Shown here in pieces: positions 1 to 32,725 of a DNA stretch of 64,000 bases (positions are counted from its first letter, which is position 1; each line of letters begins with the position of its first letter). Position numbers and translations under genes: made by a program. Location of the stretch: positions 32,001-96,000 of the forward strand of contig CAWJKZ010000010.1 in the NCBI GenBank assembly GCA_963843575.1, given 5' to 3'. The notes under the pieces were generated by a model that was given only the letters and a program-made list of their open reading frames with translations, did not search any database and had not been told where the DNA came from. This stretch comes from an uncultured Acidobacteriota bacterium (GTDB lineage Bacteria > Acidobacteriota > UBA6911).

Positions 1-1301
<1,301 letters not shown>

Positions 1302-1391
1302 TTATTTAATATCTGCGCGCCTGTGTGTCAAGTGTCAAAAACCGGAAGCGGAAGCCGGAAGGCGGCTCCCGGCTCCCGGCTTCCGTTTGTG

Positions 1392-2828
1392 CTAGCCCTT
1401 GATGACGCCGACGGGTCGGAGTCGCGCGACTTTCCGGCTGATCCCCGCGGAGACGACGGCGTCCACCACGTCGTGGATGTCTTTGTAGGCTTCGGGCATT
1501 TCTTCCGCGACGGTCCGGCGGCCCGATGCCATCAGGGTCACCCCTCGTTCTTTCATTTCGCCAAACAGGTCTCGTCCGCGTGCGTGCTTCAGCGCCTGGG
1601 TGCGGCTCTGGACGCGCCCGGCGCCGTGGCAGCTGCTGCCGAAAGTCTCCTGCATGGCGCGTGCGGTTCCGGCGAGGACATAGGAACCGGTTCCCATGTC
1701 GCCCGGGATGAGCACGGGTTGGCCCGTTTCGCGGTACGCTGCCGGGATCTGGGGAGATCCGGGCCCGAATGCTCGGGTCGCCCCCTTGCGGTGGACGCAC
1801 ACGAGCTGCTCGGTCCCGTCGATCGTGTGCCGTTCGAATTTCGCGATGTTGTGGCACACGTCGTAGACCAGCCCGAATCCCAACGTGCGCGGGTTTGTGT
1901 CGAGCGCCTCGAGCATGGCGCGCTCGGCCAGCCCCATCATGACCTGACGGTTGGCCCATGCGTAATTTGCGGCGCAGGACATCGCGGCGAGATAGCGGCG
2001 TCCCTCGTCGGAGTCGAGGGGGGCACATGCGAGCTGACGGTCGGGGACTTCGATGCCATACTTGCGCATGGCCTGCGCCACGACGCCGAGGTAATCGTCG
2101 CACACCTGGTACCCGAGCCCGCGGGAGCCGGAGTGGATGAAAACGGCAACCTGGCCTTCGCGCAGCCCGAACGCGTCCGCCACCGCGGGGTCGAAAATTT
2201 CCTCTACGACGTCTATTTCCAGGAAGTGATTGCCACTGCCCAGGGTGCCGACTTGTGTAGAACCGCGCTCCCTGGCCCGATCGCTCACCTGATCGCAGTC
2301 CGCACCCTCGAGGCAGCCCCCTTCTTCGGTATTCTCGAGGTCCTGGGCATTTCCGAACCCGCGTCCGACCGCCCATCGGGCGCCGTTTTCGAGCACGTCG
2401 CGCTGCTCAGAGCGCGACAGCCTGCTCACCGCCCCGGATGAGCCGACGCCAGCCGGAACGGCCCGGTACAGCGCCGTGACGATTTCTTTCATCTTCGGCT
2501 GTATATCGTGGAGGACCAGACCGGTCCTGATCAGTCGGACCCCTCAATTAATGTCGTAGCCGACCCCTCCCGGAGAGATGACGCCGTCTTGCGCGCTCAT
2601 GGCGGCCACGCCGCCGATGGGAAAGCCATATCCCCAGTGGATATCGGGCATCGCGATGGAGTACTTCACGATGCCGGGGAGGTGGGCAACATTGCGGACC
2701 TGCTGCACGCTCTCGTCGCTCTTTGGGTCGGCAAGCAGCTTCCGGGTGGCGTAGATCCTCCCGGGAACGCGCATGCCGCCGGTCTTGGGAATCTCCCAGA
2801 GGTAATCATGTATCTTCCGAATATCCAT
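1392..2828 (-). CDS. rtcB: RtcB RNA ligase (archease-dependent type), 478 aa if read through the in-frame TGA at 2544-2546 (putative Sec)
   Basis: ORFs 2544..2828 and 1392..2492 are in the same frame with no other stop between them. Motifs [60 protein letters not shown] and a terminal KG. AGGAG RBS upstream. Confidence 0.95.
2512..2528 (-). promoter_or_regulatory. Putative bacterial SECIS hairpin AGGACC-GGUCU-GGUCCU
   Basis: Perfect 6-bp stem begins 15 nt after the in-frame UGA. The loop starts with GG, 21 nt after UGA, and GGUCU matches the apical sequence of the E. coli fdhF SECIS. Confidence 0.7.
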
Positions 2829-2906
2829 GGTTCGACTCCTGACAGGGAGTGGGCCGCGGCGGCCCTCGCATCCTGCCTCTCCCGGCCGCTCATCCCGCCC
2901 ACCTGT

Positions 2907-3335
2907 TCAAATGTCCAGTATAACGGTCGCCCGCCATTCCCCGTCCACTTCCCCGACCTGGAGCTTGTGGTAGGTTACCGCCTTGACCTCTTGATATTCG
3001 CAGCCGGAGGCTTCCTCCCACGTCACGGCGAGCGGGACCGCGCGCAGCAAAGCGGGGCCGATCTCCATGGGTGAGGCGTCGACGAAGTACGCGTGCCGGA
3101 GGTGGAAGAGGCAGAGCAGTTCCTGGAGCCAGCGTACGAGGAGTTCCTCCCGGTCGGCGGCCTCGATGAACACGGGAGCGCAGGCGCAAGGGGCCCCGGC
3201 GGGGACGGGCCCGATCCACTCCATAAGGGCGCGGCCGGCCGCGGTGAAGAGCGCCTCGAGCGAGCATGCCCGGACCCGGATCCCCACGTCGGCGGCGTGA
3301 TCGAAGAAAGAGTAAGTGGCGGCGCCGTCTCCCAT
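2907..3335 (-). CDS. Archease
   Basis: N-terminal YSFFDHAADVG, C-terminal EVKAVTYH..ATVILDI; lies directly upstream of rtcB. Confidence 0.93.
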   Translation of the reverse strand: MGDGAATYSFFDHAADVGIRVRACSLEALFTAAGRALMEWIGPVPAGAPCACAPVFIEAADREELLVRWLQELLCLFHLRHAYFVDASPMEIGPALLRAVPLAVTWEEASGCEYQEVKAVTYHKLQVGEVDGEWRATVILDI

Positions 3336-3443
3336 GCAGGCATTGTACATTTCCGCGGGCGGGAGACCACGTCCAGATATCGTTTTATCGCCGGCCCGTC
3401 TGCTGGTACCTTAAGGGCCGTGACTACTCGCGCAATCACAGCC

Positions 3444-5651
3444 ATGCTCCTGGTTTTTGCCGCTGCGGCGGCATCCGGTCGCGTGGGGCAGGCGCAACAG
3501 GACCCGCTAAAGCTCAAGACGGTGCCGCCGGCAGAGCGCGTTCGAACTGAAATCCCGTACCGCGACGGCACAGTCGTACTGGTGTCCGACTTCCAGGAGC
3601 GGACCTCCAAGACGCGCTACCGCGCGCAGGGGAGCGTCGAGATTGCGTTCCAGGACATACGCATCACCTGCGACGAGGCGGAGTACGACGAGGAGACGCA
3701 GCAGGGGGAAACCCACGGGCAGACACGCTTCAGCCAGAACGCCCAGTGGCTCACCTGTTCTCGGGCGGAATTCGATTTCGGCAAGCAGACGGGGGTCTTT
3801 TACGACGCCAGCGGCTTCACGGACCGGGAGTTCCTCGTGCGTGGCAGCACTGTCCTGAAGACGGGCAAGGACAGGTACGTCGTGCGGGATGGTGCGATTA
3901 CGGCCTGCCCGGAGCGGCGTCCGAAGTGGTCGTTCGGCACCTCCAGCGCACGCGTGCGGGTCGACCACACGGCGAGACTCAGGAACATGGTGTTCAGGAT
4001 CAAAGGCGTTCCGGTCCTGTACCTGCCTTACCTGATCGTCCCTATGGAGGAGAAGAAGCGCAGTTCGGGGTTCATCCCCTTCCACACGGGCACCTCCACG
4101 TCGAAAGGGCGGCTCTTCAGCCAGGGGTATTACCAGACGCTGGGGCGCAGCGCCGACGCCACCCTGTATGCGGACTACTTCACGCTGCGGGGACTGGCCG
4201 TCGGGGGCATCCTGCGGGCACGGCCCAATCCCCGGACCCGGCTGTTTCTGCAGGCGTATGGTATCCGCGACCGGCTGGATCAGGGTGGCGCGCTGGTGAT
4301 CGCCGACGGCGAGAGCCAGTTCGAGAACGGGTTCCGCGCCGTGGCCCGGGTGAACATCACGACGAATTTCCGCTTCCGCCAGGCCTTCGCCGACACCTTC
4401 CGGTCCGCGACGATCCCGCAGGAGAACTCGGTCCTGTTTCTGACACGCAATCACGGCAGCCTTTCCACCAACTTCCTGTTTCAGCGGCACGAGGTGCTGT
4501 TCCCGGGCCGTTCGCTCGTGATGCGCAAGTCTCCTTCCATCGAGTTCTTCTCGCTCGGGACACCCGCCGGGAAGCTGCCGCTGTTGTTCTTCCTCCGGGC
4601 ATCGGCCGACGCCGTCTCGAGAATCGACAGCCGGATGGAGACACCGAAGATGGTGCAGCGGCTCGACCTGCACCCGCGGCTGGAAGTACGGCTGCCGGCG
4701 TTTGCCGGGTTCTCGCTCGTCCCCACGGCCGGGGTGCGGGAAACCTTCTACAGCGCCAGGATCGCGGACGAGGTCTCGTCCGAAGTTATCCCGCGCAGGC
4801 TGGAGCGCCGCTATGCGGAATTCGAGCTCGACCTGCGCACCCCGACAATCGAAAGGGACTTCGGCACCGGCGAAGGACGCCTGCGGCACGTCCTGGAACC
4901 GATGGTGACCTACCGCCGTATCTCCGGCATCGACAACCTCAGGGAGATCGTGCGGTTCGACGAGGAAGACGCGTTTGCCGACACCAACGAGGTGGAGTAC
5001 GGCGTCGTAAACCGCATCTTCCGGAAACGCGACCTCAAGCAGGGCGGCAGCCAGGATTACGAGCTGCTGTCGTTTGCCCTGGCCCAGAAGTATTTCTTCG
5101 ATCCCTCCTTCGGCGGGGCGTTCCGTCAGGGGGACTCCAACCAGTTCTACCCGCTGAATACCCTCACCGGTTTCTCGCTGACGGGGATCCAGAGAAACCT
5201 CGCGCCAACGAGCATGATACTCAGGGTCAACCCACTGAGAGGCATTTCCTACGACGTGCGTTCCGACTTCGACAGCCGGCTGCAGAGTTTTCGCGACGCC
5301 AGCGTCTCGGCGCTGTGGCAGCAGGAAAAGGTGTTCGTGGCGGGCACCTACTTCCTCACCCGCGCTCTGGAGCCCGGGATGCTGGAGAGCAACCACGTCC
5401 AGGGGCAGGCGGGATACGGGTCGATGTTGCGGGGTTTTTCGGGAAGCGTAACCCTCAGCTATAATATCCAGTCCAAGCAACTGCTGAACAGTCACACCCG
5501 GATGAGCTACATGTGGGACTGTTGCGGCCTCGCCATGGAATTCCAGCAGTTCGATCTGGGGCTCCGGACCGAGAGCCGGTTCAGCTTTTCCTTCACGCTC
5601 AAAGGCATCGGGAGTTTCGGCAACCTGAAGCGACCCGAGAGCCTGTTCTGA
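3444..5651 (+). CDS. lptD: LPS assembly outer-membrane protein LptD
   Basis: Signal peptide, OstA-like N-domain (ITCDEAEYD, ITAC..PKW, LYLPYL, SGFIP), beta-barrel body, C-terminal WDCCG..FSFSFTLKGIG. Start is uncertain (GTG 3420 possible). Confidence 0.88.
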   Translation: MLLVFAAAAASGRVGQAQQDPLKLKTVPPAERVRTEIPYRDGTVVLVSDFQERTSKTRYRAQGSVEIAFQDIRITCDEAEYDEETQQGETHGQTRFSQNAQWLTCSRAEFDFGKQTGVFYDASGFTDREFLVRGSTVLKTGKDRYVVRDGAITACPERRPKWSFGTSSARVRVDHTARLRNMVFRIKGVPVLYLPYLIVPMEEKKRSSGFIPFHTGTSTSKGRLFSQGYYQTLGRSADATLYADYFTLRGLAVGGILRARPNPRTRLFLQAYGIRDRLDQGGALVIADGESQFENGFRAVARVNITTNFRFRQAFADTFRSATIPQENSVLFLTRNHGSLSTNFLFQRHEVLFPGRSLVMRKSPSIEFFSLGTPAGKLPLLFFLRASADAVSRIDSRMETPKMVQRLDLHPRLEVRLPAFAGFSLVPTAGVRETFYSARIADEVSSEVIPRRLERRYAEFELDLRTPTIERDFGTGEGRLRHVLEPMVTYRRISGIDNLREIVRFDEEDAFADTNEVEYGVVNRIFRKRDLKQGGSQDYELLSFALAQKYFFDPSFGGAFRQGDSNQFYPLNTLTGFSLTGIQRNLAPTSMILRVNPLRGISYDVRSDFDSRLQSFRDASVSALWQQEKVFVAGTYFLTRALEPGMLESNHVQGQAGYGSMLRGFSGSVTLSYNIQSKQLLNSHTRMSYMWDCCGLAMEFQQFDLGLRTESRFSFSFTLKGIGSFGNLKRPESLF

Positions 5652-31590: not shown

Positions 31591-32725
31591 ATGTTGCCGC
31601 GTTCCCCTATCAGAAAATGGTTGTCGATCGCGGCGCTCGCCGCCATAGCGCTGGTGCTTTACCGCGAGGCGTCGGACGTGGTGTTCGCGGCTCGCCTGGT
31701 GCTCGGGATTCAGCGCGTGGCGACCGGCGACACGGGGAGGGCCGGGCGGGTGGCCGAAAGCCGGGTACGCAGGAGCGACGGCGTGCGCTCCCTGGAGGCG
31801 ATCGTCTACCTCCCCGAGTACCAAAAGCCGCGCTGCGCGGTAGTCCTCGTCCCGGGAATCAGCGAACTCGGCTGCTACCATCCCCGACTGCAGGCGTTGT
31901 CACGAACGCTCGCCGGGCTGGGGTTCCTGGTCCTGACGCCCGACATCGTCAGGTTCCGCGATTTCGACATCTCGCCGTCCGCTATGGACGAAATCTCCTT
32001 CTGGCACAGGCAGGTCAACACCGTGGAAGGAGCCGGGCCGGCGCTCAAGGCGGGGCTCGCCGGGATTTCCTTCTCGGCGACCCTGGCGCTGATCACCGCC
32101 GCACGCCCCGAGATCCGGGACACCGTCTCCTTCGTATTCGGCATCGGCGCCTACGACGACCCGTTGCGCTGCAGTTCCACGTGGTTCGAGGCCGGACGGG
32201 AATCGCCGCAGTACTACCCGACGCGCTTTTACGCCAAGTGGGTCGTGATGCTCGCCGCGCTCGACATGATCCGAGACGATGGGGAGCGGCGTTTCCTCGA
32301 CTCGGTGCTCCGGGCGCTATTGCTCCAGAAAGCCATCCCGCCAGAACCCGCGGGACTGTCGGCGGAAGGTGCGCGCTGGTATCGGCTGGCCGTGATGCAC
32401 GCGGGGGAAGCGGATCCCGAACTGGCGCACCGGATCGAGGAGCACGTGGCAACCCGGTTGTACGCCCCGATCACGCCGGACCGGGCGGCGCGGGAGTTGC
32501 GCTGCCCCGTGTTCCTCGTGCACGGTGCGCATGACGACCTCATTCCGCCCTCCGAGAGCCTGCGGCTGCGCGACCGTCTCTTCGGGATTCAATCGTCCAT
32601 CCTGATCAGTCCGTTTCTGACCCACACGCATCCTTTCGCCACGCCCATGGGGTGGAGGGAGAAGGCTTCCGCCGCGCTCGACGCATTCCTGTTTTTCCGC
32701 GACTTTCGTCCGGACGGTCGGGTGA
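31591..32725 (+). CDS. Membrane-anchored alpha/beta-hydrolase-fold protein
   Basis: VVLVPG, GISFS nucleophile-elbow-like motif, LVHGAHDDLIP, terminal H; an extra T near 32705 hides the TGA at 32723. Confidence 0.65.

Follow-up and report, generated by a model that had tools for sequence, protein, structure and literature searches.

The ligation of RNA 3'-phosphate ends is the universal task of RtcB, which serves in the splicing of tRNA, in the repair of RNA and in the unfolded protein response. To our knowledge, all the RtcB enzymes studied have a cysteine at the position that holds the two manganese ions, and we know of no redox step in their catalytic cycle. Here we analyze an rtcB gene in which an in-frame UGA codon occupies the position of that cysteine, and which we read as encoding a selenocysteine (Sec) form of the enzyme. 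The gene lies in a stretch of 64,000 nucleotides (hereafter the window, whose coordinates are used throughout) from an uncultured soil bacterium of the Acidobacteriota, in the UBA6911 lineage (positions 32,001 to 96,000 of the forward strand of contig CAWJKZ010000010.1, GenBank assembly GCA_963843575.1). In the enzyme from Pyrococcus horikoshii (PhoRtcB), Cys98 is shared between metal site M1, whose other ligands are His234 and His329, and metal site M2, whose other ligands are Asp95 and His203; His404 is the guanylylated nucleophile, and a crystal structure has captured Cys98 as its sulfonic acid oxidation product (Jacewicz et al. 2022, PMC9745838).

The only literature linking RtcB and selenocysteine that we found concerns an engineered enzyme (Haruna et al. 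2014, PMC4150793). A natural Sec-containing RtcB (Sec-RtcB) was not found in the full-text literature, the supplementary tables of selenoproteome surveys, which may list it, lying outside that search. In particular, a recent inventory, which describes itself as the most comprehensive to date, counts 119 prokaryotic selenoprotein families and subfamilies, including those annotated in GenBank (Zhang et al., May 2026, PMC13188914); RtcB is absent from its Table 1, and the terms RtcB, ligase, splicing, archease and PF01139 are absent from its text, the supplement again being outside the search. Additionally, a review on the tRNA ligase complex published in 2026 never uses the word selenocysteine, and NCBIfam holds only ordinary and intein-type RtcB models.

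Based on the sequence comparisons reported below, we consider it very probable that the window gene encodes a Sec-RtcB, in which Sec95 (U95) would replace the manganese-bridging cysteine and would be inserted under the direction of the elongation factor SelB and of a hairpin downstream of the UGA; both the insertion and any benefit that it brings are what we infer from these comparisons.

The rtcB gene and its UGA codon

The rtcB coding sequence occupies positions 1392-2828 of the minus strand, from an ATG at 2828-2826 to a TAG stop at 1394-1392, and its 478 codons include one in-frame TGA, codon 95 (2544-2546), in the minus-strand context GGC TAC GAC ATT AAT TGA GGG GTC CGA CTG. An earlier note, made from the letters of the window, had proposed that the two open reading frame (ORF) pieces found here (2544-2828, 94 residues, and 1392-2492, 366 residues) form one gene, interrupted by a single in-frame UGA at the manganese-binding cysteine and with all the remaining RtcB motifs intact, including the histidine of CHGAGR. 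Translation bears out the first part of this proposal, as the two pieces share one frame and reading TGA as U gives 478 residues with zero further stops and zero frame breaks within the gene.

The motifs and the position of the UGA agree with the proposal as well. The translated protein matches the Pfam RtcB family (PF01139) over its full length (591 bits, profile positions 1-426 of 426) and aligns end to end with the PhoRtcB chains (583 bits), and the catalytic motifs are all intact (GYD at 90-92, GSGNH at 197-201, HSGSRG at 232, CHNI at 325 and SCHGAGR at 399-405). In this alignment U95 falls on Cys98 of PhoRtcB, the manganese-binding cysteine (PMC9745838), while D92, H201, H232, H326 and H401 fall on Asp95, His203, His234, His329 and His404, respectively; the M1/M2 ligand set is complete in the window protein only if Sec is counted as a thiolate analogue. 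The gene product is a full-length RtcB of the archaeal/eukaryal type, with a predicted 3'-phosphate/5'-OH RNA ligase activity, and the genome contains no second RtcB match.

Distribution of the UGA codon and selection downstream of it

We searched 61 related genomes and aligned the 30 full-length homologues recovered from them. Ten of these homologues (62-90% protein identity to the window protein) have TGA in the identical column, and exactly one in-frame TGA each, while the other 20 have TGC or TGT there. Two further genomes (G011 and G009) gave partial RtcB matches flagged with one TGA, which may stand anywhere in the match, and these are outside the full-length count. Within the phylum at large, an even draw of 401 Acidobacteriota genomes (with a cut-off of E<=1e-100 for RtcB matches) gave 144 genomes with a match, 14 of which show one TGA, and in 13 of the 144 it stands at the Cys98 column. 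The fourteenth (L175, G175:C1:96108-97541) was excluded, because its residue at the site is Cys and its only in-frame TGA is codon 182; this TGA may be an error, a pseudogene mark or something else, and three genomes of the same genus are without the stop.

Beyond the phylum, a degenerate DNA pattern for GYDIN-TGA-GV(R) was scanned over species-representative genomes, and returned at least 118 further stretches with TGA at the RtcB cysteine site. Eighty of these loci were retrieved for detailed comparison. By their titles, they come from Thermodesulfobacteriota (22), Nitrospirota (19), Acidobacteriota (14), Myxococcota (7), Binatota (2) and Eiseniibacteriota, Gemmatimonadota and Pseudomonadota (1 each), with 13 having no phylum in the title, which makes at least seven phyla overall. 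Among the entries of a large protein collection, each of the 112 full-length matches with the motif carries Cys (a count that includes the query itself, with C written for U), and the window protein and three close relatives are found there only as truncations of 366-380 residues (P0017, P0024, P0086 and P0103).

The region beyond the TGA has the properties of coding sequence. Among the 60 loci whose downstream frame ends inside the locus, 57 have 378-383 open codons after the TGA. In the other three (L090, L115 and L117) the frame is shortened to 133, 86 and 324 codons, and these are either broken genes or assembly errors. Over the 383 codons after the TGA, the comparison of the window gene with that of a genome of the same genus (G001) gave a nonsynonymous divergence (dN) of 0.062 and a synonymous divergence (dS) of 0.758 (ratio 0.082); with synonymous change so far in excess, the region past the UGA was therefore translated during the divergence of the two. 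Over all Sec-Sec pairs, the downstream dN/dS lies between 0.06 and 0.22, dS being saturated in several of them. Additionally, the homologue alignment shows conservation at the protein level for codons 96-112, which separate the UGA from the first internal ATG.

The hairpin, its evolutionary history and the selenocysteine machinery

Fifteen nucleotides after the UGA begins a hairpin (2512-2528, minus strand; AGGACC-GGUCU-GGUCCU) that resembles a bacterial selenocysteine insertion sequence (SECIS) element. It has a 6-bp stem and a 5-nt loop (GGUCU), a spacing of 21 nt between UGA and loop, and a folding energy of -8.6 kcal/mol alone and -9.2 kcal/mol in context. These values lie within all the constraints of the published bacterial SECIS model, namely a loop of 3-9 nt, a stem of at least 4 bp, a G in the first two loop positions, a UGA spacing of 16-37 nt and an energy of -7.5 kcal/mol or lower (PMC13188914).

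Hairpins of three kinds follow the TGA in the loci compared. The class to which the window hairpin belongs is kept in all 15 distinct sequences, with 87.6% of the cells paired (against 25.7-53.3% when the partner strand is slid) and with compensatory changes on both sides in three of its seven pairs. A second class (GCGCUC-AGGUCU-GAGC(C)GC) is the prevailing one among Thermodesulfobacteriota and many Acidobacteriota. The third one, found in the Nitrospirota loci L062-L128, is longer, starts about 23 nt after the UGA and has 97% of its cells paired, with three of five pairs changed on both sides (alignment A2); its loops often lack the G of the model, and it may be a distinct SECIS class.

The presence of the hairpin was then compared between Sec and Cys forms, using our own implementation of the published model. 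Agreement with the model was found for 75 of 86 distinct Sec forms, for 2 of 20 Cys forms and, when the Sec forms were recoded synonymously, for 502 of 1720 recodings, and in an extended set, to which 18 genes from the phylum sample were added, the model fits 58 of 66 Sec and 4 of 29 Cys forms. An initial test of independent contrasts had only three Sec/Cys pairs, too few for significance, and the 18 additional genes raised this number to eight (FastTree phylogeny); of these eight, an average of 5.8 pair the hairpin with the Sec side, and none has it in the opposite direction (sign test, median p 0.031). One Cys form (L192, G174:C32:27448-28881, with TGC) keeps the full SECIS-type hairpin, GCGCUCAGGUCUGAGCCGC, of its Sec-form relative L182 (G429), and in this sequence the hairpin looks like the fossil of a recent replacement of Sec by Cys.

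Phylogenies suggest that the two residues have been exchanged repeatedly. A tree of 134 proteins (57 Sec and 77 Cys forms) requires at least eight Sec/Cys changes, seven of which are forced by well-supported branches, and a 95-row tree requires ten; in the 19-row clade of the window protein, seven Sec and 12 Cys forms are interleaved. These counts come from quick, unrooted trees with biased sampling (the pattern scan returns only TGA forms, and the Cys forms are the best matches to the window protein), and the large all-Sec clade may hold Cys forms outside the sample. Because identical hairpin sequences occur in separated Sec lineages, and because of the apparent fossil in G174, the data suggest an old Sec with repeated loss to Cys, the direction being the one that these sequences favor.

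The genome that contains the window encodes the components expected for Sec insertion. Its tRNA-Sec is intact (74.6 bits, anticodon UCA), and so is SelB (a 667-codon frame with the winged-helix domain). SelA and SelD are also found, both with broken frames: selA (L009, G000:C8:2714-3463) covers residues 1-459 of a 475-residue relative in five frame pieces, and selD (L018, G000:C13:704799-705723), which is itself a selenoprotein gene, has an in-frame TGA (VSCAG-U-ASKLS) followed by a hairpin with the tip GGUC, and its frame is broken once, close to profile position 155. This TGA lies at the site where the SelD family is known to carry Sec (motif UxxK, PMC13188914). We attribute the breaks in selA and selD to assembly indels, because the essential rpoB (G000:C24:252860-257103) is broken likewise, into at least six frame pieces in the same assembly. 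The combination of few contigs with a completeness of 81-88% points to an indel-rich sequence, whose frame shifts should not be read as pseudogenes; the caution of the earlier note, that the errors of this assembly are indels rather than substitutions, is in line with the pieces of rpoB and selA. In three other genomes of the same family (G004, G006 and G007), all Sec-RtcB carriers, selA has an unbroken frame of 471-475 codons. Of the 61 related genomes, 58 have SelB, as do four of five carriers from other phyla; because nearly all the related genomes have it, its co-occurrence cannot be used to tell Sec from Cys forms.

Upstream of rtcB, at a distance of 78 nt and on the same strand, lies an archease gene (2907-3350, 147 codons, PF01951 with 105 bits). 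Because this gene terminates with TGA, TGA is also an ordinary stop codon in the genome. An archease match is found in 57 of the 80 scanned Sec-rtcB loci, and many of the other loci have no upstream sequence. An AGGAG at 2836-2840 (minus strand), 7 nt before the rtcB ATG, resembles a ribosome-binding site and may act as one. After the rtcB stop, a GC-rich inverted repeat with 10-bp arms and a TTTTT run (1337-1385, minus strand) is a weak candidate for a terminator; it is not among the matches of a consensus scan for terminators and promoters, which gave nothing attributable to an archease-rtcB operon. The immediate downstream neighbor of rtcB is a GroEL-like chaperonin gene (3-1271, minus strand, 423 codons) that runs off the window start, and a plus-strand ORF of 852 codons (3093-5651) overlaps the region of the archease gene.

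Proposed mechanism, rival explanations and known systems

In the mechanism that we propose, the hairpin, with its loop 21 nt past the UGA, would recruit the complex of SelB, GTP and Sec-tRNA(Sec), and the UGA would be decoded as Sec95. Without selenium, translation would end after 94 residues, and the selenium supply would gate the synthesis of RtcB. In the finished protein, M1 and M2 would share a selenolate ligand in place of the thiolate, and archease from the upstream gene would activate the enzyme by promoting the guanylylation of His401, a step which archease is described as promoting in human RTCB (PMC10944509). The other chemistry would be unchanged (guanylylation of His401, formation of the RNA 3'-pp5'G intermediate and ligation). 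The most speculative step is the benefit, which might be a resistance to irreversible over-oxidation of this residue and/or an altered metal affinity or selectivity. The cysteine at this position is the known weak point of RtcB, whose over-oxidation inactivates the enzyme, and tolerance of oxidation is the likelier advantage of the two.

The Sec-RtcB reading of the earlier note is supported by three lines of evidence. The UGA column is shared among relatives while the others have Cys (10 TGA against 20 Cys forms in the 30 homologues, besides the stretches from the pattern scan), the half downstream of the UGA is under purifying rather than relaxed selection, and tRNA-Sec, SelB, SelA and SelD are all found in the genome, the last two frame-broken; from these we infer the insertion of selenium. 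Judged by its sequences, the group is in our reading a genuine selenoprotein family that is widespread and apparently missing from the catalogues.

Several observations weigh against this reading. Taken alone, the fold of the window region is not significant against dinucleotide shuffles (z = -0.14, in a test that is uninformative for a 17-nt hairpin), and against synonymous recodings the window hairpin gave z = -0.78; because of this, the case for the hairpin rests on the comparison across sequences. In that comparison, 11 of the 86 Sec forms, mostly from Nitrospirota, fail the loop rule of the SECIS model, and some bacterial SECIS elements are described as falling outside the model (PMC13188914). 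The frames of selA and selD are broken in the window genome, and selA is fragmented in the same-genus G001 as well. As for independent sequencing data, the best public runs contain at most 0.24 of the sampled words; the contigs of four of these runs contain no near-identical piece over 2544-2546 (one 51-nt piece with six differences touches 2538-2588), and no RNA run is among the runs listed. Finally, the engineered P. horikoshii RtcB with Sec98 cleaved itself spontaneously, with no activity reported (PMC4150793), and because of this self-cleavage a Sec at the RtcB site is not automatically benign.

Three rival explanations have to be weighed against Sec-RtcB. According to one of them, a TGC or TGT codon was mutated or misread to TGA, leaving a gene that is dead or mis-assembled, which would suit an error-rich assembly with frame-shifted rpoB and selA and without a public-run contig over the codon. 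The errors seen are, however, indels and not substitutions, the same TGA recurs in 10 of the 30 homologues and, among independent assemblies, in no fewer than 118 stretches besides, the frame is open downstream in 57 of 60 loci with a dN/dS of 0.06-0.22, and the gene is the sole RtcB of the genome; we regard this explanation as having a negligible probability and, because the identical TGA appears in many independent assemblies, its base-call version as untenable. A related possibility is that the Sec pathway has decayed in the genus of the window genome, where the UGA would be a relic and RtcB would no longer be made, Sec-RtcB being real in other lineages. The five pieces of selA in the window genome (G000), its fragmentation in G001 and the frame break of selD are what would be expected from such a decay, but the essential rpoB is broken alike, so these breaks are no sign of decay; the genes for tRNA-Sec and SelB are whole, selA is intact in the three related carriers G004, G006 and G007, and the divergence between G000 and G001 downstream of the UGA (dS 0.76, dN 0.062) also speaks against it. 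We find this highly improbable.

The remaining explanation, which we hold to be unlikely, keeps the gene functional and removes the selenium: the UGA would be decoded as another residue (by near-cognate insertion of Trp, Cys or Arg), or translation would re-initiate to give a split enzyme of 94 and about 366 residues. Gene callers do predict a C-terminal protein of 366-380 residues from an internal ATG, and Sec insertion is here a prediction from sequence. Against this, the split form would lose the conserved codons 96-112, and a residue other than Cys or Sec would lose the bridging ligand, whose replacement by Ala is described as abolishing all the ligation steps (PMC9745838). Additionally, the stop is always at the one codon that is Cys elsewhere, and it is accompanied by a SECIS-type hairpin that is mostly absent from the Cys forms. 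In the window genome, the Sec machinery is all present.

Returning to Sec-RtcB, a broader statement can be formulated, to which we give about even chances: that it is a widespread uncatalogued family (at least 118 stretches, at least seven phyla) in which selenium bridges a binuclear manganese site, that it has undergone at least eight to ten Sec/Cys interconversions, and that it is an alternative to protection of the PYROXD1 type. If true, this would be a non-redox nucleic-acid enzyme with Sec as a metal ligand, and one family to add to the 119 of the current selenoprotein catalogue. A natural Sec at the RtcB cysteine would make it possible to ask whether selenium alters oxidation resistance, metal preference or rate in an enzyme that is not a redox enzyme. 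On the practical side, public protein sets show Sec-RtcB genes only as truncated products of 366-380 residues, and RtcB would therefore be counted too rarely in Acidobacteriota, Thermodesulfobacteriota, Nitrospirota and other groups that use selenium.

Compared with known systems, the window RtcB shares with the P. horikoshii enzyme (PDB 1uc2, 4dwq, 4isz and 7lfq, among others) the positions of the M1/M2 ligands, the histidine nucleophile and the GYDINxGVR motif, and, as with the archaeal/eukaryal-type RtcB that works with archease, an archease gene is adjacent in the window too. It differs from PhoRtcB in a bridging ligand encoded by UGA (and read as Sec), in a SECIS-type hairpin within the reading frame and in having no intein. 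The engineered PhoRtcB U98 (Haruna et al. 2014, PMC4150793) has Sec at exactly the homologous position; this enzyme is man-made, with a UAG codon, an EF-Tu-dependent tRNA and no SECIS element, whereas the window form is natural and conserved and would depend on SelB and SECIS, which makes a natural Sec-RtcB the counterpart of the engineered, self-cleaving enzyme.

The use of Sec as a metal ligand in place of Cys has parallels in formate dehydrogenase (Mo/W) and [NiFeSe] hydrogenase (Ni), which, like the window RtcB, are known as Sec/Cys pairs, and for which Sec has been proposed to guard against irreversible over-oxidation (PMC13188914). These two are redox enzymes, whereas RtcB joins RNA by nucleotidyl transfer at a binuclear manganese site. 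A parallel in the residue itself comes from human RTCB, where the same active-site cysteine, C122, is the oxidation-sensitive point, and which Metazoa guard with a partner oxidoreductase, PYROXD1, whereas in the window RtcB it is the residue itself that would be changed to Sec (PMC12263435, PMC13247085). Following this comparison, Sec-RtcB and PYROXD1 may be two solutions to the same oxidation problem.

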